The notes under the pieces were generated by a model. The model had not been told where the DNA came from. It saw only the letters and a program-made list of their open reading frames with translations, and did no database searches. 64,000 nucleotides of DNA from a virus, in IMG/VR virus record IMGVR_UViG_3300045988_125011. One strand, given 5' to 3'. Each line of letters opens with the position of its first letter. Position 1 is the stretch's first letter. This document shows positions 2,748-31,400 of the stretch, one piece after another. The translations under genes and the position numbers were made by a program.

Positions 2748-3164
2748 ACAGCTCGGTTTTCCGGGGTTTCTTGAACTCCGGTGGTACGGGTATGGCGGAA
2801 TCTACCTGATTGTTGGTCGGGTTTGGTTCACGCTAAAGCGAGGTTCGATGTCGTAAGGCTGGCACGGTACGATTCCGTGGGGTGGGTTTAATGGGATGTG
2901 AACCCTGTGCGCACAACTCACCTAACGCTTAGACCCTGTATTGGTGAAGGTAAGTGAGGAGGCATCCAAAATCTGAAAGCCATTACGGGGCGTGCGGGAC
3001 TACGAAAGTGTTCAAGTGGAGGAAATGCTGCCACCGCGTGGGAGTTGAAAACAAACATGAAAGTGCATCCTTGGAAGGTTGGAGTTGAAAATAGTTTTCG
3101 GAGTCGCGCCCGAACCTATTGAGGTAAAACCTTCTCCCATAAAAAATTGCGGGAGGTGAAAGAC

Positions 3165-5678: not shown

Positions 5679-5758
5679 GCCGAGGTAGTTTAATTGGTAA
5701 AACATAGCGCTGTCAACATCAGGCTATAATGGCGGTTCAAGACCGGCTCTCGGCACCA
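5679..5758 (+). ncRNA. Aberrant tRNA-like element. Acceptor stem, D-arm (gttt-aattggta-aaac), T-arm (ggttcaagacc) and 3' CCA are present, but the anticodon region is a 23-nt extended bulged hairpin with no canonical 7-nt loop.
   Basis: Folded by hand; acceptor gccgagg pairs with tctcggc; total 80 nt. Confidence 0.4.
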
Positions 5759-5885
5759 GAGGGAACGATGTTCATTCCTTGAGTATCGGAGCGCAAGGCT
5801 TATTGATGCAATCCGAAGCATTGAGGTATTAGTGTGGGGAACATCAAACGGCGGAGTTGACTTGGGTTTTATGCCGTAAAAGTAT

Positions 5886-5961
5886 GGGGATATAGCTCAG
5901 TTGGGAGAGCATCTGCTTTGCAAGCAGAGGGTCGCCGGTTCGAGTCCGGCTATCTCCACCA
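5886..5961 (+). tRNA. tRNA-Ala (anticodon TGC)
   Basis: Cloverleaf folded by hand; G3:U70 pair present; anticodon loop tttgcaa; encoded CCA. Confidence 0.9.
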
Positions 5962-6233
5962 CCTCATAAAAGAAGGAGCAACCAATGAAACCGAGTATGG
6001 CTTTGGTAAGGAGGGGGGGGTAAACATGGAGCGTGGTGACTTCATATCAGGCGAAGCGTGGTGCAAATACAAATTTGAGCGCGAAAGCAAAAAAGAAGAA
6101 ATTGAGCGACTCCAAAGAAAGGTTGAGCGAGCAAGCAAAAATCTCCACAATCGAATAGTGTATGACAACATTGTACTAACCGTTTTGAGTGTGACGACAA
6201 TCGCAGTATTAGCTGGTTGGATATAAGAAATAT

Positions 6234-6317
6234 GCAGGATTGGTGGAATTGGCAGACACGGCGGATTCAAGTCCCGCTGCCATCGGCGTAAGAGTTCAAG
6301 TCTCTTATCCTGCACCA
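6234..6317 (+). tRNA. tRNA-Leu (anticodon CAA), long variable arm
   Basis: Acceptor gcaggat/atcctgc; loop ttcaagt; A31-C39 mismatch in the anticodon stem; CCA encoded. Confidence 0.75.
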
Positions 6318-6488
6318 TGCAGTTTTGCCATGCGCGTGTCCTTCGTTCATTTGTAAGTTCCTTTCTTCGTACCTGCATCAAGATAAACACCTCCATCAAA
6401 TATTCACCTCCATCTTTTGCGGGCAAAACTGTTTGTGGAACTCAAGCGTGTCCACCTTTCTGGGCATACCGTAATAGCCGGTCAATAT

Positions 6489-6564
6489 ACTTCCGTAGCT
6501 CAGTTGGTAGAGCACGGCACTTTTAATGCTGGGGTCACGAGTTCGAGCCTCGTCGGGAGTACCA
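6489..6564 (+). tRNA. tRNA-Lys (anticodon TTT)
   Basis: Hand-folded; loop cttttaa; T-arm acgag-ttcgagc-ctcgt; CCA encoded; the ORF at 6417 overlapping it is spurious. Confidence 0.85.
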
Positions 6565-6590
6565 AAGTCAAATATATAAGGAGGTTCCTT

Positions 6591-7247
6591 ATGGGAGTTC
6601 ATATTCATATCCCCGCTGATGCAGTATGGGGGTTTTTCCAAGCAAGCAGAAAACGTTTGAACAAAGAAATGGTTCTCATCGCTGAGAACACCGACACGGA
6701 GTACGCCGTGTATCTTACCGAGGAAAACGACCTCCCAGTTTTGGCTGTTGCAAAGGGCAACGAAAAAATTGAGTACAAAGAACCTTGCGTGAGTGAGGAG
6801 GACTGTACAGCGGTGTCGAAGAAATTCTACACACGCTATCTCTTTCCTGTTGTGATTACAGACAACAAGTATGTTCCGGGAGACAATCCAGATGGCGGCA
6901 AAGAAGAAAGCGATGAAACATGGATGGACATAGAGGATGCTATGTATGAGCGAGATGATGAACTCTGTTTGGCTATGGCAGATTTCCTCGCAATCGCGCT
7001 GCAGGAGGGTGACAACGACGGAACAAATATCTTAGAAGCGTATGGCTATGAAGCTGTCGATGAAATCCTTGATGGATTTTTGAAAGAGCTTTCAGAAGAT
7101 TACGGTTTCCATATCTATCGACCGATGATTATAACGGAAAAAGAAAGCGGCTGTGAAGTCTTTACAGAGTTTCCGTATGATGAATATGACATCGACGGTG
7201 TGGACGAACCGGAAGATGAAGAAGATGAAACTGAGACGGGCGAATGA
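6591..7247 (+). CDS. hypothetical protein with a strongly acidic C-terminus
   Basis: Start moved to ATG 6591 (RBS aaggaggttcctt), downstream of tRNA-Lys; C-terminal DEPEDEEDETE. Confidence 0.55.
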   Translation: MGVHIHIPADAVWGFFQASRKRLNKEMVLIAENTDTEYAVYLTEENDLPVLAVAKGNEKIEYKEPCVSEEDCTAVSKKFYTRYLFPVVITDNKYVPGDNPDGGKEESDETWMDIEDAMYERDDELCLAMADFLAIALQEGDNDGTNILEAYGYEAVDEILDGFLKELSEDYGFHIYRPMIITEKESGCEVFTEFPYDEYDIDGVDEPEDEEDETETGE

Positions 7248-7263
7248 CCCGTCTCTTTTTATT
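7233..7263 (+). terminator. Rho-independent terminator overlapping the stop codon of the 6591 gene
   Basis: gagacggg-cgaatga-cccgtctc followed by ttttta. Confidence 0.6.
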
Positions 7264-7264
7264 T

Positions 7265-7354
7265 GGGGAGTTGACCGAGTGGCTTATGGTGGCGGTCTTG
7301 AAAACCGTTGACGGTGAAAGCCGTCCGTGGGTTCGAATCCTACACTCCCCGCCA
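7265..7354 (+). tRNA. tRNA-Ser (anticodon TGA), long variable arm
   Basis: Acceptor ggggagt/actcccc; loop cttgaaa; CCA encoded. Confidence 0.85.
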
Positions 7355-7382
7355 ACTAAATGATAATGGACGGAGGTAACAT

Positions 7383-8042
7383 ATGCCTGAATGTTTGGAT
7401 AATATGCCGTGGCGTTCGCTGAAGGGGCTTGGGGATATGGCACCCGACTTCCTTAGATTGGGAGATTTCAAAAACGTCAGATTAAAAGACGATACACTGG
7501 TTCAGTTCCGTATCATTGGATTCAAACACGATGTTACAAAAAGTGGTCGTATCCTCCCACTGACTTGGGAGATGGTTGACTGCCTTCCAAACCGGCATCG
7601 TTGGAATAGCAACGACACGAACAGAGGTTCTTGGGGTGCAACAGAGTTGTTCCATAAGATGAACGACGAAGATGGCGTAATTTACCAGCTCATGCCAGAC
7701 GAGATTCTTGAGGTGGTCGAACCAGTAATCAAGCTTACTGCAAACACCTATGACGGAGCGAACGAATTGCTCGAAACGGAGTGCAAGTTTTGGATTAAGT
7801 CCGAAAAAGAAACCTTTGGACGGAACATCTATTCGGCACCGGGCGAAGGTCATTGGTACGAATATTACCGGCAAGAAGATGTCCCTTGGGGCAAGAAGCG
7901 TAATGGTTCCGCTGAGTACACTATGCTGCGTTCTCCTAATTACACCGGCAGCGCCGGCTTCTGCTTTGTGTACACGAGCGGCACCGCGAACTTTGGCAAC
8001 GCAAGGTATTCCTCCGGCGTCGCCCCGGCTTTCAGTTTCTAA
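7383..8042 (+). CDS. hypothetical protein with a C-type-lectin/DUF1566-like C-terminus (ends ...SGVAPAFSF)
   Basis: 219 aa; C-terminal ...YTGSAGFCFVYTSGTANFGNARYSSGVAPAFSF resembles the end of FGE/CLec-fold receptor-binding domains. Confidence 0.5.
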   Translation: MPECLDNMPWRSLKGLGDMAPDFLRLGDFKNVRLKDDTLVQFRIIGFKHDVTKSGRILPLTWEMVDCLPNRHRWNSNDTNRGSWGATELFHKMNDEDGVIYQLMPDEILEVVEPVIKLTANTYDGANELLETECKFWIKSEKETFGRNIYSAPGEGHWYEYYRQEDVPWGKKRNGSAEYTMLRSPNYTGSAGFCFVYTSGTANFGNARYSSGVAPAFSF

Positions 8043-8216
8043 TCTGTGTATCAAAAGCATCAGCACCACGGAAGTGGTGCAAGATAAAACCATAACCACT
8101 GGGGCAGTTGCTTCAGTGGTTTTATGTCCACAATGGCTCCAACCTCCTCGTGGTGTGGGCGGATAGTCGTAAGACGAACTAATAGGGGTACATTTGAAAT
8201 CAAGGAGTACATACAC

Positions 8217-8615
8217 ATGGCAAAAATCGTTATCGCAGGCGACGCAGTCGTCGTCACTTCCGCAATGAAGCTTGAGGACATCAAGACCATCGAGAAGTAT
8301 CGTCCCAAGGAGCTCGTCCTGAAGGGCGGCGAGGATGGCAAGGAGCCCATCTTCGGTGTCGGCACCACTCATGGTGCAGGCAATATCAACGCAGTTGGCG
8401 CATCCTTCGGCTCCGAGACCCGTGACGATGACAAGCTGGCGTGCATCACCCTGTTCCTCGACGGTGTTACCGGCGATGTGAAGGATTGGGTCGCTGACCG
8501 CCTTGGCGCTGCCATCATCAACCTCAACAAGCTCGAAGAGAAGCTCCCCACTGTTCTCGAAGAGATTGCGGCTGAGAAGGCAACCGTGATGAGCAACATC
8601 ACTGTCGCTCAGTAA
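8217..8615 (+). CDS. hypothetical protein
   Basis: Start set at ATG 8217 with RBS caaggagtacatacac; the gene sits between tRNAs. Confidence 0.5.
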   Translation: MAKIVIAGDAVVVTSAMKLEDIKTIEKYRPKELVLKGGEDGKEPIFGVGTTHGAGNINAVGASFGSETRDDDKLACITLFLDGVTGDVKDWVADRLGAAIINLNKLEEKLPTVLEEIAAEKATVMSNITVAQ

Positions 8616-8688
8616 GAGACACTGCAACGGGGCGGCTATGCCGCCCCACCACCCAAAAAACAAAAAACGAATAAAAGGAGAATACATA

Positions 8689-8916
8689 ATGATTAAGGTT
8701 ACTGTTGGCAACAATGTTAAGCGTGAGGCTGTCATCATCGATGAGAATACCACCCTGCGCTCCTGCCTTGAGGCAAACGGCGTTGATTACACTCGTGGTG
8801 TCATGCACCTCGATGGCTCTTCTCTGAACCCCGGCGACCTCGATAAGACCTTCCAGCAGTTCGGCATTACCGAGAAGTGCTTCCTGCTGAATGTCGTTAA
8901 GGCGGACAACGCCTAA
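8689..8916 (+). CDS. small beta-grasp (ThiS/MoaD-like) protein, candidate ubiquitin-like protein; no C-terminal GG
   Basis: MIKVTVGNN...VMHLDGSSLNPGDLDKT resembles the ThiS/MoaD pattern; RBS aaaaggagaatacataATG. Confidence 0.35.
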   Translation: MIKVTVGNNVKREAVIIDENTTLRSCLEANGVDYTRGVMHLDGSSLNPGDLDKTFQQFGITEKCFLLNVVKADNA

Positions 8917-8927
8917 GTTTTAGATTA

Positions 8928-8956
8928 GAGCCGCCCTTCATGGGGCGGCTCTTTTC
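8928..8956 (+). terminator. Rho-independent terminator immediately before tRNA-Leu(TAA)
   Basis: gagccgccc-ttcat-gggcggctc followed by tttt. Confidence 0.6.
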
Positions 8957-8958
8957 AT

Positions 8959-9043
8959 GGGGAATTGGTGGAATTGGAAGACACAACAGATTTAAGTTCT
9001 GTTGGCGTATGCCGTATCGGTTCAAATCCGATATTCCCCACCA
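8959..9043 (+). tRNA. tRNA-Leu (anticodon TAA), long variable arm
   Basis: Acceptor ggggaat/attcccc; anticodon stem acaga/tctgt; loop tttaagt; CCA encoded. Confidence 0.85.
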
Positions 9044-9069: not shown

Positions 9070-10563
9070 GTGTTCAAGACAAGCATTACATCGACACCGT
9101 TTACGTCAGAGGCGGCTAATAGCTTTTTTCAGAACATTACCGGAAGCTATTTTGGCAATGACTGTTCGTTCCTTTCAACGCTTCGTGCACTGGTTGCACC
9201 TCGAATCAAAGAGGACGAAAGTGTTTACCTGACTTTCGGTTCGACCAATTATGATGGGAACACTATCCGTAGCGTTCCAGCAGAACGTGCGGTTAGTGCT
9301 ATCTGTAGCAGTTATCAAATGAATGCCAGCGGTGCGCTCATAGTCCATAGCTTCAATGCTGACCAAAATAGCAATCTGGCTTGTATGCAGATTGTGGAGG
9401 ACAAGTTTACTTCTATCTACCCAGAGTATCACCGTCTTGATAAGGTCAAAGCGTTTTATCGGAAGTCATTCAATGTTGATTGTTATATCAACCCTGACAA
9501 GAAGTCGGTGATTGTCTTCGTTGACAATCTTGATGTTAAGAAAATGCATTACCTTCAGGTATCTATTCTTGCATTCATGCCGTGGTACCTAAATCAGGAT
9601 GATGGTTTGACAGAAGATGAGCTTGCATTGATGCAATCCTTGCGAGAAACAAATTCGGCAAACTATGAGAAGTACATTGCAAAGCTTGCCGAGGGATATG
9701 ATTTCAGAACAGCGCGGATTCGTCAGTTGCTGGGTGATTTTGAAACCAGATATGAGCGCATCGAATGCGATACTGTTCGCAATGAAATTCAATCTATTGA
9801 CATGGAGATTCAGCGACTCAATGATTCTATCGGCGCGTATCTGTCGCGCCGCAATGACAAGTGCATCAGATTGTTGGGACTTGAGCAAAGAATTGCAGAG
9901 GGCGGTGGAGATTCTGAAATCATGGATTATTTCCTCTGCAACAACAGACTTGTCCTGTCTCATGTTAGCAATACGGATATGTATTTCTCGGTTAAAGACT
10001 ACCTTGAATACTTTGACAGAGATATGGCTGAGCGAGCAATCAACAATAGAAGCAGTTATGTGTATCGACCGGATGGTGGCAACGGTCACAATGCGGCAGC
10101 TTCAGAGAAAATGCAGAAGCTGATGCAGGAGATTTTCGTAAGTGAAAATCCTCGGCTTAGAATCCGCTTTTGCGCAGCATATAGATTCGACCTGAATGGT
10201 AGTGTTTCTGCGCAGACTGGTGATTTTTCTGATTACACATTTGATGGTTATATGCCTAATACGCATATTGACCGTTATCATTGCATGGGCAATTACAGCA
10301 GGACTATCAATGAACTGCTGAGAAAACGAAATTATATCGGTGCACTTGAGCAGTGTATTGCGTCCTGTAAGAGTCTGAACTTCGGCGACAGTGCAGTTAT
10401 GGGCGAGTTTATGAGAACCATGTGGTCAAATAACACGGTCAGTCGTTGTATTGAGTTGCCAGATGGTCGCGTTGTAAAGCCGAACGAAGCAATTAGATGG
10501 CTTGATGAGCAGGAGGCAAAGGATGAGCAGACGGAGGAGGCGCAAAATGAGCAGACCAATTAA
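9070..10563 (+). CDS. hypothetical protein (497 aa), first gene of the operon with the JAB and E1-like genes
   Basis: Long ORF; its stop overlaps the JAB gene start; no catalytic motif recognised. Confidence 0.55.
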   Translation: MFKTSITSTPFTSEAANSFFQNITGSYFGNDCSFLSTLRALVAPRIKEDESVYLTFGSTNYDGNTIRSVPAERAVSAICSSYQMNASGALIVHSFNADQNSNLACMQIVEDKFTSIYPEYHRLDKVKAFYRKSFNVDCYINPDKKSVIVFVDNLDVKKMHYLQVSILAFMPWYLNQDDGLTEDELALMQSLRETNSANYEKYIAKLAEGYDFRTARIRQLLGDFETRYERIECDTVRNEIQSIDMEIQRLNDSIGAYLSRRNDKCIRLLGLEQRIAEGGGDSEIMDYFLCNNRLVLSHVSNTDMYFSVKDYLEYFDRDMAERAINNRSSYVYRPDGGNGHNAAASEKMQKLMQEIFVSENPRLRIRFCAAYRFDLNGSVSAQTGDFSDYTFDGYMPNTHIDRYHCMGNYSRTINELLRKRNYIGALEQCIASCKSLNFGDSAVMGEFMRTMWSNNTVSRCIELPDGRVVKPNEAIRWLDEQEAKDEQTEEAQNEQTN

Positions 10564-11479
10564 GTTGACGCAGGAACTCATTGATGAGTGCCGTCAAGAT
10601 TTTGAGAAGGCTTTGTCACTTACAAAGCTCTCGGATGGAAAGCTTTCTTTTACCAAAGCGTTCTCATGTGGTGACAGAAAGGCAGTAGTTTACTTCAGCG
10701 CAGAGGCGTGGGCAAAGATGACTATGCTTATCAAAGAGTTCGATAAAGAGGTCGCATGGCATGGTGTCGCACGTCGAACTGAAGATGAATCGCTTGACGA
10801 GTATGTCATCGATGACATCGTTGTCTATCCGCAGGAGGTAACCGGCGCAACGGTTGAGATGGACACCGAGAAATATGCTCTGTGGATTCAGGAAAACATC
10901 GAAGATGAGCGTTTCAACCACATCTATATGCAGGGACATTCCCATGTAAATATGGGTACGTCTCCATCCTCTGTTGACCTCAATCATCAAGAGGAAATCC
11001 TCGGGATGCTTGGCGATAATGACTTCTACATCTTTATGATTTGGAACAAGTCATTTGCAAGCACAAATAAAATCTATGACCTCAAGAAGAACGTGATGTT
11101 TGAGGATAAAGATATCACGGTCAAGATTATCGGTCAGAATGAAGGACTTGATGAGTTTATCAAAAACGCGAAGGATATGGTGAAGTCAAAGTCCTATGCG
11201 TATGGCGGTCAGAGCGGATACGGCGGTTACTACAATCAGGGATACAGGGGAGCTCCGGCTGGTGCTCCGTATAATCCACTTGCAGGTAAGTCCGACGACA
11301 AAAAGGACAGTAAGAAAGAAGAAAACAAGGATAAGTCATCTGGTAAAAAGAACGAGGGAGAGAAACCCAGAACCAGAATTGGAGCTGGTTGGCATGGACA
11401 GAATGCCTGCCAAGAATCAATGCATGGCTGGGAAGACGAAGATGACTACGACCCTTATGCATACTTAGGAGGTAAGTAA
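10547..11479 (+). CDS. JAB/MPN (JAMM) metallopeptidase-domain protein with a basic N-terminus and a Gly/Tyr-rich C-terminal tail
   Basis: HIYMQGHSHVNMGTSPSSVDL fits the JAMM H-x-H-x7-S-x2-D motif; start moved to ATG 10547 (RBS ggaggaggcgcaaa). Confidence 0.55.
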   Translation: MSRPIKLTQELIDECRQDFEKALSLTKLSDGKLSFTKAFSCGDRKAVVYFSAEAWAKMTMLIKEFDKEVAWHGVARRTEDESLDEYVIDDIVVYPQEVTGATVEMDTEKYALWIQENIEDERFNHIYMQGHSHVNMGTSPSSVDLNHQEEILGMLGDNDFYIFMIWNKSFASTNKIYDLKKNVMFEDKDITVKIIGQNEGLDEFIKNAKDMVKSKSYAYGGQSGYGGYYNQGYRGAPAGAPYNPLAGKSDDKKDSKKEENKDKSSGKKNEGEKPRTRIGAGWHGQNACQESMHGWEDEDDYDPYAYLGGK

Positions 11480-11480
11480 T

Positions 11481-12158
11481 ATGGCTATTGACCTGTCAAA
11501 GAGCTATGAATATTTTCAGCCCGAGAAGGTTGATTGTAGAATCCATATCGTCGGGTGTGGTTCTGTCGGCGCGACGGTTGCGGAGCTGCTGGTTCGCTTA
11601 GGACTCACGAACATCGCACTGTGGGATATGGACACAGTAAGTCCGCACAATCTGGCAAATCAGATTTTCCGTCAGCAGGACATTGGGCGCTCTAAGGTCG
11701 AGGCATTGGCGGATATTCTTTTCGACATCAATCCTGATGTTAAGGATGACCTGAAGCTTTACAAGGATGGGTGGAACGGGCAGCAGTTATCCGGCTATGT
11801 GTTCTTGTGCGTCGATAACATCGAGCTGAGAAAAAAGATTGTTGAGAAACACTTCGACAATCCGTATGTAAAGGCGATGTTTGATTTCAGAACTCTGCTG
11901 GAGGCTGGTCAGCACTATGCTGCTGATTGGTCTGACTACAAGATGAAGAAAGACCTCCTCAACTCCATGAATTTTACACACGATGAGGCGGCGGAAGAAA
12001 CTCCAGTCTCAGCTTGTGGCATCACGCTTGGCGTTGTGACTACGGTCAGAGTGATTTGTGCTCTGGGTGTGAGCAACTTCGTCAAGTACATCAGAGGCAA
12101 GGGGCTGAATAAGCTGATTATTTGTGACGCATTCCAGCCGCTGTTGGATGCGTTTTAA
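11481..12158 (+). CDS. ThiF/MoeB/HesA-family E1-like (ubiquitin-activating-like) enzyme, minimal form
   Basis: RIHIVGCGSVGATVAELLVRLG Rossmann GxGxxG nucleotide-binding motif typical of E1/ThiF; 225 aa. Confidence 0.65.
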   Translation: MAIDLSKSYEYFQPEKVDCRIHIVGCGSVGATVAELLVRLGLTNIALWDMDTVSPHNLANQIFRQQDIGRSKVEALADILFDINPDVKDDLKLYKDGWNGQQLSGYVFLCVDNIELRKKIVEKHFDNPYVKAMFDFRTLLEAGQHYAADWSDYKMKKDLLNSMNFTHDEAAEETPVSACGITLGVVTTVRVICALGVSNFVKYIRGKGLNKLIICDAFQPLLDAF

Positions 12159-12189: not shown

Positions 12190-12996
12190 ATGGACACGAC
12201 CGTTGGTGCTCTCAAAGTAGGTGCACAACTCGTGATGGGCAAGTACGGTGTGGACAAAGACAACCCGTACCCGATTGTTTGGCTGAAAGGAAATCCAAAC
12301 TGTGATTTTATCACAGAAAAAGCTATCGACTACCTGTGCTTCGATGCGGCAGAAGAGACTGGGCATTATAGGCGTGTTAATAATGCGAAGTATCCGGTGT
12401 CCAATCTGTTTTCGTTCTTGAACAGTGACCAGATGATGTGGTATCACGCAATGCACGATAATGATTCTTCACCCGGTGCCTTTGTGAGGTATAGTTATGC
12501 TCGCTATGAAGACCATTACGGGTTTCTATATTTCTTTGAAGACCACGAAATTGCTTCTTTGGTCAGGAAAGAGTATGTGGTCGGAGAGAACCGAGTGTCT
12601 TCGTTGATTCGCCTGCCATCAGTTGCAGATATTTTTAGCCTCCAAGATGGGCGGCGCTTTGACTTATTCAAAAGAAAAGGCATTCGTCCGAATCCGACAG
12701 CCGACTTGTTCGACCTGAAAGCTCGTTATGCAGGGCTTGATTCAGACCGTGGATTTATGAGCTTCTGGCTGTTAGACGATGTTGAGACCGAAAGAGCGGC
12801 GATTTCAAATCGCTCTGGTGTGTTAAACAGGCTGACAGCATCAAGCTGTTCCGGGGTAAGACCGGTGTGCACCTTGAACCCTGACACAATTGTCGAACAG
12901 CGAGAAGCTGGTGTGTTTTTCATCAAGCCATTCACAACTCAAAATGTCTTTACGGACGAAGAACTGTTTGAATTATTAGGTATGGCGCAGCCTTAA
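12190..12996 (+). CDS. hypothetical protein with a CLec/DUF1566-like C-terminus (...SSCSGVRPVCTL)
   Basis: The G-V-R-P-V ending is characteristic of FGE/C-type-lectin-fold domains; paralogous ending to the 7383 gene. Confidence 0.5.
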   Translation: MDTTVGALKVGAQLVMGKYGVDKDNPYPIVWLKGNPNCDFITEKAIDYLCFDAAEETGHYRRVNNAKYPVSNLFSFLNSDQMMWYHAMHDNDSSPGAFVRYSYARYEDHYGFLYFFEDHEIASLVRKEYVVGENRVSSLIRLPSVADIFSLQDGRRFDLFKRKGIRPNPTADLFDLKARYAGLDSDRGFMSFWLLDDVETERAAISNRSGVLNRLTASSCSGVRPVCTLNPDTIVEQREAGVFFIKPFTTQNVFTDEELFELLGMAQP

Positions 12997-13007
12997 TGCG
13001 CCACAGA

Positions 13008-13075
13008 CTGTAACGGATTTTCTCGTAAGAGAGCTTTACGCCAAAGGCTAAAGTAACAAATTGTCGGGAGGATGA
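13008..13075 (+). repeat. Copy 1 of a structured three-hairpin motif: GNRA hairpin tctcGTAAgaga, then cttta-CGCCAAAGGC-taaag, then agtaacaa and a gggagg..cccc hairpin. Lies upstream of the RT gene.
   Basis: Compared by eye with copies at 14558, 14836 and 31352; the stem flanking CGCCAAAGGC changes by compensatory substitutions between copies. Confidence 0.6.
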
Positions 13076-13385
13076 CCCCCGGTGGATGACGCGGTGGAAC
13101 CCAGAAAGCAAACTGGCTGCCACGGGTCGGCAGCATCACGCAATAAAACCAGCCAAATGTCAAGCACTTTTCGCCAAATCTTCGATACAAGGACGAAATG
13201 AACTGACATCAGACTCACGCTTTCAGTCGCAATAATTCCAAAGAAGAAAAAAAAATCTGCTCGCATCTTACACCACGTTTACACCATCTCCCGCATATAA
13301 GCGACTCAGTCTTCAGATTCAGGAATTCTGGGAAGCAGCAGACATATGTAGGTTACAGTTAGTTATTGGACAAGGAGGGGAAGAA

Positions 13386-14522
13386 ATGGTCTATATCACT
13401 GTTAGGCAGTCACCGATTTATCATCAGATGACACTGGAAGAGTACCTGTTTCAAAACTATCAGACACCTCCGGTTGTCAATGCCAATATTGCAAACACAA
13501 GAACATACGAGGTCGAAAATGTCAGTGAACATTTTTCCAGCAAGATTGGCGTTGAAGCTTTAATCGGAAAACTCGTGCGATTTAATAACGATACAGCAGA
13601 GCTTCGTGCAAAGGAACGGAGCGAGTTGTATGAGACTTTTTACATCCCAAAGAAATCTGGTGGTCTTCGTAGAATCGATGCGCCAAAGGCAGAGCTGATG
13701 GACGCCCTGAGAAGACTCAAAACGATTTTCGAGGATGATTTCCATGCACTCTATCATACTGCCGCGTTTGCTTATGTAAAGAAGCGGAGTACAGTCGATG
13801 CGGTTAAGCGTCACCAGAAGAACAGCAGCAAATGGTTCGCAAAGCTTGACCTGCACGACTTTTTTGGCAGCACAACATTGGATTATGCCATCTCAATGTT
13901 CTCGATGGTTTTTCCTTTTAGTGAGATTGTAAAAGAGCCACAGGGCGAGGCAGCATTGCGGACAGCTATGTCGTTAGCGTTCTTAAATGGTGGGCTACCG
14001 CAGGGTACCCCAATTTCACCGCTTATCACAAACGTAATGATGATTCCGGTTGATTTCAAACTGTCGAATACGCTCCGTAATTTTGAAAAACAGAGCTTCA
14101 TTTATACCAGATATGCGGATGACTTCATCATTTCATCCAAGTATGATTTTGATGTTCGTTCTGTTGAAGAGCTGGTAGTAAGTACATTGAACAGCTTTGG
14201 TGCCCCGTTCACAATCAATGCAAGCAAGACTCGGTATGGTTCATCAGCAGGGCGCAACTGGAATCTTGGCGTTATGCTGAATAAGGACAACGAGATTACG
14301 GTCGGTCATAAAAAGAAAAAGCAGTTCCAGTCAATGCTGTACAATTACATCACAGATAAGAACAATGGTGTCGCTTGGGAACGGAATGATGTACAGGTAA
14401 TGTATGGTCTGCATAGCTATTATCGTATGGTCGAAAAAGAGACCATCGACGCAATTGTAGCTTACATCAACAAGAAAATGAATGTGGATGTAATCCGTAT
14501 GATGAAGGACGACCTGCGGTAA
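13386..14522 (+). CDS. reverse transcriptase (retron/DRT/DGR-like single-domain RT, 378 aa)
   Basis: RT motifs FYIPKKSGGLRRI, LDLHDFF, GLPQGTPISPLITNV, YTRYADDFIIS (YADD box), plus retron-type AYVKKRSTVDAVKRH; RBS aaggaggggaagaaATG. Confidence 0.85.
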   Translation: MVYITVRQSPIYHQMTLEEYLFQNYQTPPVVNANIANTRTYEVENVSEHFSSKIGVEALIGKLVRFNNDTAELRAKERSELYETFYIPKKSGGLRRIDAPKAELMDALRRLKTIFEDDFHALYHTAAFAYVKKRSTVDAVKRHQKNSSKWFAKLDLHDFFGSTTLDYAISMFSMVFPFSEIVKEPQGEAALRTAMSLAFLNGGLPQGTPISPLITNVMMIPVDFKLSNTLRNFEKQSFIYTRYADDFIISSKYDFDVRSVEELVVSTLNSFGAPFTINASKTRYGSSAGRNWNLGVMLNKDNEITVGHKKKKQFQSMLYNYITDKNNGVAWERNDVQVMYGLHSYYRMVEKETIDAIVAYINKKMNVDVIRMMKDDLR

Positions 14523-14557
14523 CGTCTATAAATAACCCGCAATCCTGTAATGCATAA

Positions 14558-14632
14558 TTGCGAAAGCAATGCTTATCGCCAAAGGCATAAGTAACAACTT
14601 GATAGGGAGGAAAACCTCCCCAGAGGCGCATT
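14558..14632 (+). repeat. Copy 2 of the three-hairpin motif (ttgcGAAAgcaa, cttat-CGCCAAAGGC-ataag, agtaacaa, gggaggaaaacctcccc), immediately downstream of the RT stop
   Basis: About 55-nt direct repeat of copy 1 with covarying stems. Confidence 0.6.
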
Positions 14633-14835
14633 CACCTGCAGACTCAAGTCATCCTTCGAGGCTGGGAACCACACGGTGAGCAGCCCGAATCACTCGAATC
14701 CATTGTGGCACAATGGATTCAACGAGCCTGACCAAAGGATGTCGCACGCCAGACACTGGGTGCCGGAGCTCCTCCTCACGAGGAGCTACCTCCATGTAGA
14801 TTACAGGGTAATCAAATTATCATTTGCAGTGAATA

Positions 14836-14900
14836 ACATTTCGTAAGGAATGTGCTTCACGCCAAAGGCTGAAGTATCACTTTGCTGGACAGCACAATTC
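14836..14900 (+). repeat. Copy 3 of the hairpin motif (acatttcGTAAggaatgt, cttca-CGCCAAAGGC-tgaag)
   Basis: Same architecture; the stem again differs by compensatory changes. Confidence 0.55.
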
Positions 14901-15125
14901 CCCGCCCGCAGCCTGCTGCGAAGGCGCCTAAGCCAGCTGTACAGCTCATTAAAACTAATCTGGATGTCTCGTCACCTCCATCTGATGAGCGACCGACGAA
15001 CCCATTGTCTCCCAATGATTTCATCATCGCCACTTGGGATTTGAACTCGCTTTCAGCTCATCTAAATCCCGTCGTTACAGGAGATAAACAAAGAGACCAG
15101 AGCAGAATATACATATGGACTGCAG

Positions 15126-15824
15126 ATGAGAAAGGAACTGAGCATGATTTATGTCACTGGAGATACACACGCAAACATTGATATTGCCAAGCTTAATACA
15201 ACAAAGTTCCCACAACAAAAGGAATTGACGAAGAGTGATTTCGTAATCATATGTGGCGATTTCGGACTATGCTGGGACGGTTCGCATCGAGAGATGTGGT
15301 GGCAAGACTGGCTGACAGCGAAAAACTTTACGACACTTTGGATTGATGGCAACCATGAGAACTTTGATATGCTCTACCAGTTCCCGCTGATTGACAAATT
15401 TGGCGGAAAGGTGCGTGAAATCGCTCCTGACATCTATCATCTGGACAGAGGGCAGGTGCTCACGATTGATGGAAAGAAAATCTTCTGCATGGGCGGTGCT
15501 CGCTCTGTTGATAAAGAGTATCGCGTGGAACATATCTCATGGTGGAAAGAGGAAATGCCGTCCAGAGAAGAAATGGAACGAGCGATTGCAGCACTCGAAC
15601 AAAATAATTGGCGAGTTGACTATGTAATTACACATTGTGCGCCAAGGAGTGTTCAGACTCTGCTCGCAAGCTGGTACGAGAACGACCCGATGGTCAGCTT
15701 TTTGGATAGGGTTTGTTCCGACCTCACATTCAAGCGGTGGTTCTTTGGACATTATCATGTGGACAAGCAGGTCAATGAGCAATTTATTGCTCTGTATAAT
15801 AAAGTAATTCCAATGGAGTGGTAA
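15126..15824 (+). CDS. calcineurin-like metallophosphoesterase
   Basis: GDTHANID, CGDFG and GNHE metallophosphatase motifs; alternative start ATG 15144; the 3' end overlaps the first nucleotides of tRNA-Ser. Confidence 0.7.
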   Translation: MRKELSMIYVTGDTHANIDIAKLNTTKFPQQKELTKSDFVIICGDFGLCWDGSHREMWWQDWLTAKNFTTLWIDGNHENFDMLYQFPLIDKFGGKVREIAPDIYHLDRGQVLTIDGKKIFCMGGARSVDKEYRVEHISWWKEEMPSREEMERAIAALEQNNWRVDYVITHCAPRSVQTLLASWYENDPMVSFLDRVCSDLTFKRWFFGHYHVDKQVNEQFIALYNKVIPMEW

Positions 15825-15904
15825 GCCTAACGGTAAGGCAGCGGTTTGCTAAACCGTGAGTAATCCGAAAGGATGTGCAGGTTCAAGTCCTGTCCACTCC
15901 GCCA
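15815..15904 (+). tRNA. tRNA-Ser (anticodon GCT), long variable arm
   Basis: Acceptor ggagtgg/ccactcc; anticodon loop ttgctaa; CCA encoded. Confidence 0.8.
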
Positions 15905-15980
15905 AGGGGTGTGGTGCAATGGCTAACATAGCGGTCTCCAAAACCGTCAGATGGTGGTTCGAATCCATTCACCCCTGCCA
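15905..15980 (+). tRNA. tRNA-Trp (anticodon CCA)
   Basis: Acceptor aggggtg/cacccct; loop ctccaaa; CCA encoded; directly abuts tRNA-Ser. Confidence 0.8.
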
Positions 15981-16166
15981 GTTGTTGGGTAGCTCCCAAC
16001 TGATGTGAGCGATTATCGGCTTACCTCACAAAGAATGAAAATGCTTGCTGAAAACTGCGCTTGTCTTGATGCGTCAAGACCGGTTTGACCTGACGGAATA
16101 GGGGCTACGACTTTTCGGAGCGTAGTTGCCGGTAGCGTGTGACAATCTAAGCGAGAAGCCGACCAT

Positions 16167-16243
16167 GCGGCGTTGGTGTTCAACGGTTAGCACTCCGGTC
16201 TTCCAAACCGGTGGTGCCAGTTCGAGTCTGGTACGCCGCTCCA
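16167..16243 (+). tRNA. tRNA-Gly (anticodon TCC)
   Basis: Acceptor gcggcgt/acgccgc; anticodon stem ccggt/accgg; loop cttccaa; CCA encoded. Confidence 0.85.
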
Positions 16244-16360
16244 AGTAAGAAACCATTAAATTATGCGTTAAAGGAAATGCCTTTACGACACGTCAGAGCC
16301 TGCTCTGGAAGTCGGTTACAGGTTGGTTTGGCGGGACGCCGCTGCATGAGCCTGCAGATA

Positions 16361-16435
16361 CAGGGGTATGGTGAAGCGGTAACACAGCGGACTTTGACTC
16401 CGTTATTCGTAGGTTCAAATCCTACTGCCCCTGCC
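16361..16435 (+). tRNA. tRNA-Gln (anticodon TTG)
   Basis: Loop ctttgac; T-arm gtagg-ttcaaat-cctac; 75 nt; CCA encoded. Confidence 0.85.
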
Positions 16436-16595
16436 AAAATCATCTTCGGCATTAGAGCTTGTTTTCTATCCCTGCAATCCCTTGTGCCACGATGATTTAT
16501 CCATGATTCTCCTTTCACGCTATCAAAACTGCCATCATAGTGAGTTTGTATTGGTGGTGTTAATGACATCGCCATAGTTTCAGGATGGCATCTAT

Positions 16596-16671
16596 GCTGG
16601 AATAGCTCAACTGGTAGAGTAACGCTTTCGTACAGCGTGGGTTCTCGGTTCGACTCCGAGTTCCAGCTCCA
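16596..16671 (+). tRNA. tRNA-Thr (anticodon CGT)
   Basis: Acceptor gctggaa/ttccagc; anticodon stem acgct/agcgt; loop ttcgtac; CCA encoded. Confidence 0.85.
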
Positions 16672-16784
16672 TCTGCTCTGTTGGTCATGCTTACGTTTGT
16701 ACGGTTAGTTCATCACTCAACTGTTATCTCTGTAAGAGACACAGCCGGGTGCACACGGAGTCCTACGGGCGCAGGGCGTATCTA

Positions 16785-16858
16785 TGCTGATGTAGCTCAG
16801 TTGGTAGAGCAGCACCGGAAGTGCGAGCCGCTGGTTCAAGTCCAGTCATCAGCAGCCT
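16785..16858 (+). ncRNA. Degenerate tRNA-like element. Acceptor stem gctgatg/catcagc, D-arm and T-arm are canonical, but only 18 nt lie between D- and T-arms (4-bp stem gcac/gtgc, 5-nt loop), so it has no anticodon loop and ends GCC rather than CCA.
   Basis: Hand fold gives a total of 69 nt; cannot make a standard cloverleaf. Confidence 0.4.
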
Positions 16859-16898
16859 TTTAGCTAAAAGCTGACACCTCGGAAAGACGAGGGTGCAC

Positions 16899-16974
16899 GC
16901 TGGTGTAGCGTAATTGGTAGCGCAAGTGATTTGTACTCACTGGGTTGCGGGTTCGAGCCCTGTCACCAGCTCCA
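16899..16974 (+). tRNA. tRNA-Thr (anticodon TGT)
   Basis: Acceptor gctggtg/caccagc; anticodon stem agtga/tcact; loop tttgtac; CCA encoded; two G-U pairs in the T-stem. Confidence 0.8.
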
Positions 16975-17008
16975 ACGGACTGACATATCCGTTTTCCTTT
17001 CTGCCCCG

Positions 17009-17092
17009 GCACGCACTACTAAGCATTGATGGCGATGCTTATGGTGAGGATGGTTCGAACCCATCAGTAGTGCGTGTGCGTTCGGAAACAAA
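17009..17092 (+). ncRNA. tRNA-like or mini-helix structure: an 11-bp closing stem (cacgcactact/agtagtgcgtg) enclosing a 6-bp hairpin (aagcat..atgctt) and a canonical T-arm (gatgg-ttcgaac-ccatc), with no D-arm
   Basis: Structure read by hand in the spacer between tRNA-Thr and tRNA-Pro. Confidence 0.3.
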
Positions 17093-17102
17093 ACCATTAT
17101 AT

Positions 17103-17178
17103 CTGGGTGTAGCACAGGTGGTAGTGCGCTTGCTTTGGGAGCAAGATGTCGGGGGTTCGAGTCCTCTCGCCCAGACCA
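17103..17178 (+). tRNA. tRNA-Pro (anticodon TGG)
   Basis: Anticodon stem cttgc/gcaag; loop tttggga; CCA encoded. Confidence 0.8.
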
Positions 17179-18240: not shown

Positions 18241-18676
18241 AACATAAGCGGATAACCGCTATGATACAGACCGCTTTGAAGATTGACTACATACATATGT
18301 CTCAGCAAAACGTGTAGTATCTTCTCGCTTAAAGCAGAAGAAAAGATTTGAGTTCTTCATTTTTAGCCTCGCATTTCCGAGGTTATAATTTTTATTCAGC
18401 GAATAAAAATAATAACCCGGAAATTGCTTGCTAAAAATGTCACTTTGTGCACATGGGGCTTCTGTAACAATCACGCCCCATGCGGAAAGCGGTCGGCAAA
18501 TTGAGAACGGAGGCGAGTTCAATGACAGACAAGAATAGGCGAAAACTTCAAGCGAAGAGAGCACGCAATTTCTGGACTTGTGCTCGTCCCGTTACTCAAA
18601 TTGTTCCAAACAAACGAGCTTATAATCGTAAGCGCGAGAAGGATATTCGTTACAAGTATAAGGAGGGCGAGCAAGA

Positions 18677-20578: not shown

Positions 20579-21784
20579 ATGCTTGAGTTACAGGGTAAGT
20601 TTGGCACTGCAAAGGTGTTTACCGACGTGGTCGATAATGAGTCTATCTCTCAGGTTATCAATCTTTTGAATCAACCGTACATCGAGGGAAGCAAAGTCCG
20701 TATGATGCCAGACATTCATGCTGGGGCTGGTTGTACAATCGGAACCACGATGACCATCAAGGATAAGATTTGCCCGAACCTTGTCGGCGTTGACATTGGA
20801 TGCGGCATGGAAACTATCCGTATCAAAGAAACGCATATTGAACCGCAGAAGCTGGACAAAGTTATTCGTGCAGGAGTTCCGTCCGGTTTCGAGATTCGCA
20901 CAGAAGCTCATAGATATGCAAGTAGCATCGACCTGTCGGAACTGTGCTGTGCAAAGATGGTCAATGTAGACCGCGCATATAAAAGCATCGGTACGCTTGG
21001 TGGAGGGAATCATTTCATCGAAGCCAACAAAGATGATGATGGACACATCTATATTGTGGTGCATTCCGGTAGTAGACACCTTGGTCTGGAGATTGCTAAC
21101 TTCTATCAGGAAGCTGCGTTCAAGGCGTTAACCTCGTATTCCAAGGAAGAAATCGAGGAGGTCGTCAACGAGTTAAAAGCGGCTGGAAGACAAAGAGAAA
21201 TCCAAGCTGTTCTTAAAGGCATGAAGGCGAAGAAGCCGGGAGTTCCAAAGCAGCTTGCATACGTTGAGGGAGAATTGTTTGAGCAGTATATCCATGACAT
21301 GAAAATTGCTCAACGTTTTGCTGAGCTTAACCGCCAAGCAATGATGGACACCATTGTTAAGGGTATGGGCTTCCATGTCGAAGAGCAGTTTACGACTATT
21401 CACAACTACATCGATGTAGAGAATATGATTCTTCGCAAGGGCTCGGTCTCTGCACAGGCTGGTGAGCGGCTGCTGATTCCTATCAACATGAGAGACGGTA
21501 GTTTGCTGTGTACCGGCAAAGGAAATGAAGACTGGAACTTCTCTGCCCCGCATGGAGCTGGGCGTTTGATGAGCCGCAGTGCAGCGAAAGAGACATTCAC
21601 AGTTTCTGAGTTCAAGAAGCAGATGGAAGGCATTTACACCACATCTGTTGGAAGAAGCACACTCGATGAATGCCCGATGGCATACAAAGGTATGGATGAT
21701 ATCGTAAACAATGTCGAACCGACAGTGACCATTGATGCCATCATCAAGCCGATTTATAACTTTAAGGCGGGTGAAGAGGAATGA
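20579..21784 (+). CDS. rtcB: RtcB-family RNA ligase (3'-phosphate/5'-OH)
   Basis: MPDIHAGAGCTIGTT, VGVDIGCGM, GGGNHFIE and SAPHGAGR motifs align with E. coli RtcB; 401 aa. Confidence 0.9.
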   Translation: MLELQGKFGTAKVFTDVVDNESISQVINLLNQPYIEGSKVRMMPDIHAGAGCTIGTTMTIKDKICPNLVGVDIGCGMETIRIKETHIEPQKLDKVIRAGVPSGFEIRTEAHRYASSIDLSELCCAKMVNVDRAYKSIGTLGGGNHFIEANKDDDGHIYIVVHSGSRHLGLEIANFYQEAAFKALTSYSKEEIEEVVNELKAAGRQREIQAVLKGMKAKKPGVPKQLAYVEGELFEQYIHDMKIAQRFAELNRQAMMDTIVKGMGFHVEEQFTTIHNYIDVENMILRKGSVSAQAGERLLIPINMRDGSLLCTGKGNEDWNFSAPHGAGRLMSRSAAKETFTVSEFKKQMEGIYTTSVGRSTLDECPMAYKGMDDIVNNVEPTVTIDAIIKPIYNFKAGEEE

Positions 21785-22005
21785 TGATAGTCCTTTTGGT
21801 ACTCCTGTACCTCTGCATTGGTGCGATTGTAACATTCGCACTTTGCCGCTTGTACACTATCGTAGAACCATATGACAAATATAACGGCTTCGAATGCGAG
21901 TATATCGTGGTAGGTGTTTTCTGGATTGTTGCAGCACCGTTTGCGTTTGCTGTGTTTTTTGCGAAATATGGTGAAAAACTAAAGAAAAGAGGAAAAGCTG
22001 AATGA
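21781..22005 (+). CDS. small membrane protein
   Basis: 74 aa with two hydrophobic segments. Confidence 0.4.
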   Translation: MMIVLLVLLYLCIGAIVTFALCRLYTIVEPYDKYNGFECEYIVVGVFWIVAAPFAFAVFFAKYGEKLKKRGKAE

Positions 22006-23414
22006 TTACATACAATCCGCTCCTGTGTCTGGACTTCTATAAGACTTGTCACGCTGAACAGTATCCGAAGGGATTGACCAAGATGGTCTCATACTACACG
22101 CCGCGCATGAGTCGCCTTAGTGATACCGATAAGGTTACACTGTTTGGGCTTCAGGCATTCATTCAGGAATATCTCATTGAGGCATTCAACGACCACTTCT
22201 TTAATGTCCCGTTTGATAGTGTACTCAAGGAGTACACCAGAGTTCTTGGGGCAACAATCAGAACGAAAGGCGTTGGAGAGAAACGGCTTCGTGAATTGCA
22301 TGACCTCGGCTATCTTCCGTTACAGATTCGTGCTGTTCCCGAAGGAACGAGAACCAATATCAAAGTTCCGCAAATTGAAATCTCAAATACACACCCTAAC
22401 TTCGTATGGCTGGTCAACACCATCGAGACGATGCTCTCTTGCACAATGTGGCATACGCAAGTCTCCGCTGAGGTTGGGTACAGATATCGTAAAATCGTCA
22501 ATGAGTATGCAGAACGCACTTGCGATGACAATGTGGTTCGTGCGAGACTCCTTGGCGATTTTTCTATGCGCGGGCAAGAGAGCGTTGAAAGTGCAACAAA
22601 GAGCGCAGCGGCTTTCTGCCTGAGCTTCTTGAATACAGCGACAGTGCCTGCGATTTTGTGGCTTGAGCATAATTACAACTGTGATTGTAGCAAGGAACCT
22701 GTCGCATATGGTGCGCTCTCAACAGAACACAGCGTAATGTGTTCCAACTTTGCTGTTGACGGTGATGAGGTGACACAGATTCGACGACTTCTTTGTGAGG
22801 TGTATCCGCATCAAAGTTTCTCAATGGTTAGCGACAGCTATGACTATTGGAATCTTGTTGAAAAAGTCCTCCCTCAGCTCAAAGATGACATCCTAAATCA
22901 CGATGGCTTCATCTCAATTCGCGGCGACAGCGGTGACCCTGTTAGTGTAATCACTGAGACCGTATATCGTCTGTGGGACATCTTTGGCGACAAGCGTACT
23001 GAAATCAATGCCGAGTTGGATACCTATTTGCGTGAGAAGTTCGACCAGTATGGCATCATTATTGACACTGTAAACTTTACGGATATCTCAGTTGACGATG
23101 AAACGGCTGCGGCTATCCAGAAGAAAGTCACTGCTCAGCAGGAGCTTGAGTTGGCGAATATTGAAAAGCAAACCGCCAAGGTTCAGGCTGAGAAAGATAG
23201 AGAGGTCGCACAGATTAACGCAGAGAAAGCAGTTATTGAAGCAGAAGCAAAAGCAGAGACATTGCGTATTGCTGCGGAGGCAGAAGCCGACGCAAACCGC
23301 AAGATTGCGGCTTCACTTACCAATGAGTTGATTGAAAAAATCAAGTATGAGCAGTGGAACGGAGAGCTGCCTACGGTGACTGGCTCAACGCCCATCATTA
23401 GTCTCGAACCGTGA
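22002..23414 (+). CDS. NAMPT/NadV-family nicotinamide phosphoribosyltransferase homologue, truncated core with a C-terminal Ala/Glu-rich coiled-coil extension (candidate Namat-type enzyme)
   Basis: LLCLDFYKTCH, LQIRAVPEG, GDFSMRG, MVSDSYD and IRGDSGDP align with NAMPT; the last ~100 aa are a low-complexity helical segment. Confidence 0.7.
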   Translation: MITYNPLLCLDFYKTCHAEQYPKGLTKMVSYYTPRMSRLSDTDKVTLFGLQAFIQEYLIEAFNDHFFNVPFDSVLKEYTRVLGATIRTKGVGEKRLRELHDLGYLPLQIRAVPEGTRTNIKVPQIEISNTHPNFVWLVNTIETMLSCTMWHTQVSAEVGYRYRKIVNEYAERTCDDNVVRARLLGDFSMRGQESVESATKSAAAFCLSFLNTATVPAILWLEHNYNCDCSKEPVAYGALSTEHSVMCSNFAVDGDEVTQIRRLLCEVYPHQSFSMVSDSYDYWNLVEKVLPQLKDDILNHDGFISIRGDSGDPVSVITETVYRLWDIFGDKRTEINAELDTYLREKFDQYGIIIDTVNFTDISVDDETAAAIQKKVTAQQELELANIEKQTAKVQAEKDREVAQINAEKAVIEAEAKAETLRIAAEAEADANRKIAASLTNELIEKIKYEQWNGELPTVTGSTPIISLEP

Positions 23415-31049: not shown

Positions 31050-31309
31050 GGGTTCAAATGACAGTCAAGGACATTCTTCCGAGCCATCCAGTTGAAATCA
31101 TGGTTAGAACCAACTATCCAGAAAGCCTTTTGCCGTATCTAAGCAGTGAGAGAATTGAACAGGGATTGCTTGTTGGTTATTGCTCTTGGGACGGTGAGAA
31201 TCTCATCCCTGCGGATGGTGATTACTATTCTGTGGATGAAGTTATTTCAAAATATGAGTATGAAGAGGACGGCAGTCTAACATACTGGACTGTCTCTGAA
31301 TGGGTGTAG
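31046..31309 (+). CDS. hypothetical small protein
   Basis: 87-aa ORF. Confidence 0.35.
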   Translation: MRVQMTVKDILPSHPVEIMVRTNYPESLLPYLSSERIEQGLLVGYCSWDGENLIPADGDYYSVDEVISKYEYEEDGSLTYWTVSEWV

Positions 31310-31351
31310 ACAACGACCGCTTTGTAGATTTGCTGTTATACATATTTCCTT

Positions 31352-31400
31352 CAGCAGCTTTTCGCCAAAGGCAAAAGTAAGAATTCGGCACTATGCTCGT
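31352..31400 (+). repeat. Copy 4 of the hairpin motif (ctttt-CGCCAAAGGC-aaaag then gtaagaa), followed after ~33 nt by a terminator
   Basis: Same covarying stem architecture as copies 1-3. Confidence 0.5.

Follow-up and report, generated by a model that had tools for sequence, protein, structure and literature searches.

Candidate retron-type RNA units on both sides of a retron-like reverse transcriptase gene in a large gut phage

What does a phage keep in some 600 gene-free nucleotides behind a reverse transcriptase (RT) gene? The question is raised by the 64,000-nucleotide viral stretch IMGVR_UViG_3300045988_125011 of IMG/VR (the window, with positions counted from its first letter), in which a segment rich in perfect hairpins follows the RT. 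The original prediction, made from the letters alone, saw in this segment a noncoding RNA (ncRNA), either retron msd-like or a template of a defence-associated RT (DRT), and not an ordinary spacer. That it is an RT-associated ncRNA is supported by comparative evidence, namely paired ends, flanking G residues, covarying 5' hairpins and a retron-like RT. The segment consists of two tandem, diverged copies (D1 and D2) of an RNA unit that also sits directly 5' of the RT (U), and we consider it probable, with some reserve, that D1 and D2 are paralogous retron-type ncRNAs which, together with U, are substrates of the adjacent RT.

An RNA unit repeated around the RT gene

The gene-free stretch 3' of the RT stop codon (14522) measures 603 nt up to the mechanically called ATG at 15126, in agreement with the predicted length, and 621 nt (14523-15143) up to the likelier start, ATG 15144, which GAAAGGAA just precedes. 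It had been said to open at 14600; the gene-free region is there, but its first RNA unit, D1, begins earlier, at 14542. Self-comparison of the window revealed a motif of 45 nt, with two copies spaced by 283 nt (14570 and 14853), one at 13032, in the 390-nt gap 5' of the RT, and one at 31357. Alignment of the copies with the downstream regions of relatives defined the unit as a short arm a1 followed by a G, with ATGTAG towards the other end and then a2, the reverse complement of a1. The RT gene and the three units are as follows, with P2 and P3 denoting the two 5' hairpins.

13386-14522, + strand: RT gene; 378 aa, Pfam RVT_1 at 9.8e-20, YADD active site intact
13006-13360, + strand: unit U, candidate retron-type ncRNA directly 5' of the RT; covariance-model match of 61.5 bits
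Parts of U: a1 13007-13014 (ACTGTAAC), G 13015, P2 13020-13033, P3 13033-13054, AACAAATTG 13055-13063
3' end of U, + strand: ATGTAG 13346-13351, a2 13352-13359
14542-14809, + strand: unit D1; covariance-model match of 67 bits
5' parts of D1: a1 14544-14551 (CCTGTAAT; helix reaches 14542), putative priming G 14552, P2 14557-14570 (GAAA loop)
14571-14592: P3 of D1, GCTTAT-C-GCC-AAA-GGC-ATAAGT, followed by AACAACTTG at 14593-14601
Remainder of D1: variable interior 14602-14790, ATGTAG 14794-14799, a2 14800-14807 (reaches 14809)
14696-14720, + strand: central hairpin of D1; 11 bp, loop GGC
14820-15129, + strand: unit D2; covariance-model match of 65 bits
5' parts of D2: a1 14823-14830 (TTTGCAGT; helix 14820-14830), G 14831, P2 14836-14853 (GUAA loop), P3 14854-14875
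Remainder of D2: ATCACTTTG 14876-14884, interior 14885-15108, central hairpin 15001-15017, ATATGG 15113-15118
15119-15126, + strand: a2 of D2 (helix to 15129); 11 bp including one G-U pair

U ends 26 nt 5' of the RT ATG. Unconstrained minimum free energy (MFE) folding recovers a1/a2, P2 and P3 in all three units. For D1, the MFE is -109.1 kcal/mol compared to -74.0 kcal/mol in shuffled sequences (z = -7.15; 0/200 shuffles as good), and D2 reaches z = -4.29 (0/100 shuffles as good). Compared to its relatives, D2 carries an A-to-G change in a1 that is offset by a T-to-C change in a2. Furthermore, the arms differ among the units of one genome (in the window ACTGTAAC, CCTGTAAT and TTTGCAGT), so that in a common transcript each unit would pair with itself.

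Several hairpins of the original prediction are present as described: GGGAGG-AAAA-CCTCCC at 14605-14620, AGCTCCTC-CTCAC-GAGGAGCT at 14767-14787 and the palindrome AGCTGTACAGCT at 14935-14946. The letters of a further one, CGCAGC-CT-GCTGCG, were located at 14907-14920 (CGCAGCCTGCTGCG), but its 2-nt loop cannot close, leaving at most 5 bp with a 4-nt loop. A hairpin reported as a perfect 12-bp stem is real but had been mis-transcribed; it reads GAATCCATTGTGGCACAATGGATTC (14696-14720, 25 nt) and forms an 11-bp perfect stem with a 3-nt loop. The statement that no forward open reading frame (ORF) of at least 60 aa exists was mistaken, since the + strand has 14850-15044 (64 aa, ATG) and 14882-15181 (99 aa, TTG). 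However, neither ORF is conserved among orthologous units, in which the longest stop-free frame shifts in frame and length even where the phage RTs are 99% identical, and a test of six frames in about 100 units revealed no never-ending or conserved ORF.

By its profile matches, the RT belongs to the retron or retron-like group. The best 25 PADLOC families are all retron RTs (top RT_II-A, 5.5e-46), the best NCBIfam model is retron_St85_RT (2e-51; 175 bits, under its cut-off of 235), and the top 12 matches among PDB sequences are retron RTs (Ec83, 8e-20). Other NCBIfam models gave 86 bits (group_II_RT_mat, cut-off 300) and 42 bits (Drt2, cut-off 390). Of the two systems originally proposed, the retron-like one is thus retained, whereas DRT2 is not, given the Drt2 score and the lack of a conserved stop-free frame. 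A group II intron was likewise rejected on account of its model score and the lack of an Rfam intron match. None of the Rfam 15 covariance models reaches its gathering score in the region, and none of relevance appears at E up to 10 in 12900-15300. Homologs of the RT in metagenomes number more than 5,400, and the cluster with an identical RT has 1,532 members.

Conservation and covariation of the unit family

The RT protein search yielded 60 loci on viral contigs (RT identity 55-100%; individual loci are designated by L numbers) and 16 further loci on contigs binned into metagenome-assembled genomes (MAGs). Since length variation hid P2 from RNAalifold on a plain MAFFT alignment, we used a covariance model of the 5' module (a1, G, P2, P3 and AACAAnTTG) with a hand-given structure, the E-values of which are rough. 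This model gave three strong matches and one weak match in the window and 121 matches from 46 sources in the viral loci, all on the RT strand and with 2-4 per locus. The independent MAG-binned set (16 loci) provided 38 more, with the same orientation and spread; its bins are mostly Clostridia, an assignment to be read with the unreliable binning of phage contigs in mind.

The units co-occur strictly with the RT. A unit upstream of the RT was found in all loci examined, which makes U universal, and the exact 5' module was found in 49 stretches among 2.9 million viral contigs, mostly contigs already retrieved via the RT, with the U-D1-D2 spacing seen wherever several exact matches share one stretch. 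Orthologs of D1 and D2, each with its own a1/a2 kept by compensatory change, are found in clades with RT identity as low as about 71%, and more distant lineages have downstream units of their own, some of them behind a small ORF after the RT or several kb away. Absence or lack of structure in syntenic phages had been named in advance as evidence against the prediction; D1 or D2 is indeed lost or gutted in some phages, whereas the unit family is present in every locus examined.

Covariation across homologues, as had been suggested for checking the proposed RNA, supports the closing helix, P2 and P3 through compensatory changes. The controls were shuffles and slid partners, which correct only partially for phylogeny. 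P3 is 97.8% paired with compensatory changes at 6/9 pairs, P2 shows double changes at 7/7 pairs, and the covariation score of the whole P2/P3 structure was reached by 0/500 shuffles. The closing helix a1/a2 (8-14 bp, with arms 245-370 nt apart) is found in nearly every one of the 121 matches. In 60 distinct units, double-sided changes occur at 12/12 of its pairs (8 core pairs carry a location bias, see below), and 86.9% of cells are paired compared to 27-38% with a slid partner, with 0/500 shuffles reaching the observed value. Moreover, G-U pairs are frequent in the helices, which makes the fold strand-specific, i.e., one that forms in RNA.

The base following a1 is a G in 60/60 distinct units, and the base preceding a2 is a G in 97/99. 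This geometry matches the primer G located 3'-terminally in the msr arm of retrons and their "two opposing G residues" (PMC6868368, PMC7736814). The context of the candidate priming G is AAT-G or AAC-G here and not the common TAGC; an ACGC context is known in Retron-Vch2 (PMC6868368). Furthermore, the units of a genome all share one P3 apex, which is lineage-specific (AAA in the window; GTY, TTC or TTT elsewhere). Apex identity is 0.81 within loci compared to 0.57 between loci, as would be expected of units read by a single trans-acting partner.

A few loci showed peculiarities. Some distant units, in L037 (7706), L038 (8094), L040 (8116), L044 (7206) and their relatives, contain a 35-40 nt insertion in P2, although a1-G, P3 and a matching a2 are all present; other genes separate these units from the RT, which is 2-3 kb upstream. 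Just after the RT stop in L012-L028 (5138-5170), the hairpin GGCGGTTTGAGGTTAAACCGCC precedes D1 and is missing in the window and its closest relatives. The RTs of L053, L054 and L055 (4001-5371) have 456-461 aa, approximately 80 aa more than the others, and tblastn with the window RT aligns well in these loci only from about 4500 on.

Unit interiors, proposed mechanism and rival explanations

Selection was assessed in 17 phages with RTs 99-100% identical. Nucleotide diversity (pi) is 0.000-0.006 in the 5' modules and helix ends (5' modules 0.002-0.006; D1 3' end 0.036), compared to 0.12-0.15 at four-fold sites of neighbouring genes, which places these parts of the units under strong purifying selection. 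The interiors, with pi of 0.21 (U), 0.15 (D1) and 0.075 (D2), have substitutions that are transition-dominated like those of four-fold sites and not adenine-specific. Their composition (A 0.31, C 0.28, G 0.22, T 0.18) is maintained, with C exceeding G in 94% and A exceeding T in 99% of 104 units, whereas the genome has the opposite, G over C. A comparable variability was seen at 16786-16985 in a tRNA cluster, where 58-66% of columns differ among phages with 99-100% identical RTs.

The perfect stems had been taken as a hallmark of an ncRNA. The central CCATTG..CAATGG hairpin (14696-14720), visible in alignments, is the only listed item that is a feature of the family; the remaining stems are not conserved, and most of them are a trait of D1 in this lineage. 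The strict form of the central-hairpin motif, RYTG-N3-5-CACAR, occurs in 48/103 distinct units, and its position invariably falls between 0.42 and 0.61 of the interior length. The D1 interior of the window is exceptional in its folding (z = -4.3) and has 0/65 G-U pairs in its helices, while that of D1 orthologs in the sister clade folds at the level of shuffles (z about 0). The z-scores and RNAalifold led us to reject a structured interior as a trait of the family. An avoidance of G-U pairs in interior helices, which would suggest structure at the DNA level, gave no general signal (6.1% vs. 7.1% in shuffles). AACAAnTTG, compared by eye with the consensus of the Bacteroides-type -7 promoter box, does not fit it.

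Taken together, the most likely mechanism appears to be that one RT reverse-transcribes several self-priming templates. The units would be transcribed with, or next to, the RT gene, and each would fold on itself through its own a1/a2 helix. The RT may then recognise the shared 5' module (P2 and P3) and use as primer the 2'-OH of the invariant G that follows a1 (G13015, G14552, G14831). Copying of the RNA into DNA would begin at the conserved ATGTAG that borders a2 on the 5' side and run back into the A/C-rich, variable interior. The predicted outcome is three different branched RNA-DNA products, resembling multicopy single-stranded DNA (msDNA), made by one enzyme. What these would do is a guess, for which a role in defence conflicts between phage and host or between phages comes to mind. 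We describe the locus as one that would work like a retron, outside any defined retron type.

Several observations weigh against this interpretation. The RT reaches the curated cut-off of no named retron family and fits no defined type, and in the alignment with the Ec83 RT the motifs NAKIH (NAXXH) and VTG correspond to AVKRH and NLG, with only the H and the G kept; NAXXH (region X) and VTG (region Y) are retron RT motifs, of which H and G are the most conserved residues (PMC7736814). Family searches of the neighbouring genes revealed no recognised retron effector adjacent to the RT. The interiors fold weakly (median z = -0.9 over 105 units, with only 20% below -2), no helix inside the D1 orthologs is conserved according to RNAalifold, and the long stable msd stem-loop by which canonical retron RNAs are defined is lacking. 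D1 and D2 can each be dispensed with in some relatives: L021, L023, L025 and L027 have no D1, and L058 has an internal deletion in D2. Since complementarity helped to locate the a2 arms, the 8 core pairs of the closing helix are biased; the 4 outer pairs and the fixed position of a2 next to TAG are free of this bias. Finally, the genome has further P3-like hairpins (18321 and 31357) that lack a1/a2, and P3 might therefore bind something other than the RT.

One of these hairpins belongs to a weak relative of the 5' module:

31321-31387, + strand: covariance-model match of 32.6 bits; P3 31357-31378 intact

A search of this element gave no a1-G, no a2 and no closing helix, and it is probably a degenerate relative of the units. 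The intergenic regions 18270-18480 and 31290-31620 as well as 8240-8640 of L012 have in common the pattern "ACCGCTTTGwAGATT - hairpin - P3-like hairpin - AAnnnTTTG", which the 5' module of the units shares as well; an a1-G start and an a2 partner are missing from them. These elements could be units that have degenerated, or instances in which the P3 hairpin serves a second purpose.

The most serious rival, which we nevertheless regard as unlikely, is that the units are never copied and act by binding a protein, be it the RT or another one of phage or host, serving as scaffold, decoy, expression regulator or processing signal in a polycistronic transcript. A weakly structured interior evolving at a near-neutral rate would fit a spacer between protein-binding ends equally well, and the P3-like hairpins at 18321 and 31357 as well as the end of D2 exactly at the ribosome-binding site (RBS) of the next gene point in the same direction. 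However, the arrangement of a1-G and G-a2 in about 100 distinct units is the specific design of 2'-OH priming in retrons, and interiors that keep their A/C-rich composition and length appear to be used, not merely tolerated. It is improbable that D1 and D2 are decaying duplicates of a functional U with no function of their own. While copy number does vary, as illustrated by the loci lacking D1, the deletion in L058 and the degenerate copy at 31321, the orthologs reach down to about 71% RT identity with a1/a2 maintained by compensatory change, the 5' modules of D1 and D2 are about 30-fold less diverse than synonymous sites, and distant lineages also have 2-4 units.

The A-rich interiors, hypervariable between near-identical phages, could recall the template of another RT system, either the template repeat of a diversity-generating retroelement (DGR) or a rolling-circle repeat-ORF template of the DRT2 type. 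Self-BLAST of the 64-kb window shows only shared 5' modules and no variable repeat, substitutions are transition-dominated with a negative adenine-specific test, no frame is stop-free across orthologs, and the Drt2 model falls well behind the retron model (42 vs. 175 bits); we regard this as very improbable. Hardly more credible are DNA-level mobile elements resembling miniature inverted-repeat transposable elements, or recombination sites, which the terminal inverted repeats of 8-14 bp, the variable copy number and the tandem or dispersed positions might suggest: orientation relative to the RT is uniform in 121/121 matches, the G-U pairs of the helices would be A-C mismatches on the other strand, and the elements are confined to RT-bearing contigs and show no target-site duplications. 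An ordinary intergenic spacer with terminators and promoters, as the position between two genes, where hairpins are common, might imply, is contradicted by covariation and conservation, and 14523-15143 has no terminator-like site on the + strand and sigma-70 promoter-like counts at chance; we give it next to no credence.

Returning to the units as templates of the RT, we offer one bolder and rather doubtful extension. In such a retron array, one RT would service three or four paralogous template RNAs with frozen recognition ends and freely drifting A/C-rich interiors, yielding a strain-specific repertoire of branched single-stranded DNA (ssDNA) deployed during infection. Possible uses of these ssDNAs include decoying the DNA-sensing or retron-based immunity of the host and acting against rival phages, and the array might work with the JAB/E1 block upstream or the metallophosphoesterase downstream.

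Genomic neighbourhood and comparison with known systems

Directly after D2 follow:

15130-15137, + strand: RBS GAAAGGAA
15144 (probable start) to 15824, + strand: metallophosphoesterase gene; Pfam Metallophos 3e-13, phrog_1649 2.2e-40

This gene adjoins D2 only in clades with RT identity of at least 69%, and a search of PDB sequences with its product gave no match. The metallophosphoesterase superfamily includes the 2'-5' debranching enzyme Dbr1, and it is conceivable by analogy that the protein takes part in processing a branched RNA-DNA product. Upstream, a block encoding p497, p325 and a ThiF/E1-like protein (9070-12158) precedes U and the RT wherever a locus extends far enough (RT identity 55-100%). 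In p325, the residues E83, H146, S147, H148, S156 and D159 are invariant; together with a faint PADLOC JAB match, we read E..HSH-x7-S-xx-D as a putative JAMM/JAB motif. The ThiF/E1-like protein matches PADLOC E1-E2 (4e-17), p497 could not be assigned to a family, and no informative match came from PDB sequences searched with p325 and p497 family profiles. The block may be a partner module of the RT system or plain phage synteny. A Hoc-like/DUF6273-like gene (12190-12996; phrog_10993, 2.4e-13) is inserted between the ThiF gene and the upstream ncRNA, mainly in clades with RT identity of at least 70%, with one weak match in L048 (RT identity 61%).

Two tRNA clusters (5679-9043 and 15815-17178) comprise 13 genes according to ARAGORN, to which Rfam adds a few, with the tRNA-Ser at 15815 abutting the stop codon of the metallophosphoesterase gene. 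A few kb downstream of the RT locus, 20579-23414 encodes an RtcB-type RNA ligase (phrog_1075, 2.5e-142) and a nicotinamide phosphoribosyltransferase (NAMPT) fusion (phrog_448, 1.6e-102). The tRNA clusters, RtcB and NAMPT suggest that the neighbourhood is an island of RNA repair and counter-defence. Near the start of the window, Rfam identifies RAGATH-16 (201-272, 95.6 bits), RAGATH-4 (448-578, 151 bits) and RAGATH-36 (2860-3016, 134 bits) on the + strand, RAGATH RNAs being Rfam families of unknown function. The large gut phage carries its own DNA polymerase, NrdD, RtcB, NAMPT and at least 13 tRNAs, and phages with this locus are apparently virulent. BLAST against 50,697 phage records (INPHARED) gave matches to tRNA genes only and no close annotated phage.

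In a literature search we found no description of this RNA family or of retrons with multiple ncRNAs. The units constitute a well-supported structured RNA family absent from Rfam, and the loci compared show the layout of several RNAs per RT to be conserved in a large group of phages. Should the units be copied into DNA, they would represent a natural multi-template retron, a testable case of retron-type reverse transcription working for a virus and not against one, and a source of compact RT/ncRNA pairs with interchangeable a1/a2 "addresses" for multiplexed ssDNA production in vivo.

Among known systems, phage DGRs share with this locus a phage-encoded RT and an A-rich template RNA, and their cDNA is primed from an internal RNA 2'-OH, as is proposed here. 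They differ in that the window has no variable repeat or target gene, no adenine-specific pattern and an RT that is not DGR-like. DRT2 likewise combines one RT with a structured upstream ncRNA containing a template region, from which rolling-circle cDNA synthesis creates a neo gene. Its RT is only distantly similar, and the units described here have no conserved stop-free frame and instead possess a retron-type closing helix with flanking Gs. In lytic Staphylococcus jumbo phages, MarsHill gp206 is a retron-like RT by a long noncoding region presumed to hold an ncRNA (bioRxiv 10.1101/2020.12.14.422802). It resembles our case as an RT of a virulent phage with no linked effector; however, gp206 is another RT (501 aa with a 200-aa N-terminal domain), and neither structure nor multiplicity of an ncRNA was defined there.

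The closest likeness is to retrons, which are understood as bacterial or prophage defence systems with one RT, one ncRNA and one effector. The present locus has a retron or retron-like RT with an ncRNA immediately 5' of it on the same strand, a conserved G at the inner end of the 5' arm with a G opposite on the 3' side, an msr-like 5' part with 1-3 short hairpins (here P2 and P3) and a putatively templated part that is variable in sequence. The 5' and 3' ends of the ncRNA pair in both, over 8-30 nt in retrons and 8-14 here (Mestre et al. 2020, PMC7736814; Simon et al. 2019, PMC6868368). It departs from described retrons in that a single RT is surrounded by 2-4 copies of the RNA design, as paralogous ncRNAs in tandem and on both sides of the gene, with no recognisable effector. 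The carriers are an abundant family of large, apparently virulent gut phages and not bacteria or prophages. The units are also longer (245-370 nt) than canonical retron ncRNAs, their interior is A/C-rich and mostly without a long stable msd stem, and NAXXH and VTG are degenerate. Several msr-msd copies in one genome are on record for Retron-Nex1 (Ne160) of Nannocystis exedens (Lampson and Rice 1997), as summarised in PMC6868368, where these copies have no RT within a kilobase and are interpreted as products of duplication or retrotransposition. In contrast, the units flanking the RT of the phage are complete, down to the portion that reverse transcription would leave out, and orthologous sets of them are conserved across clades.

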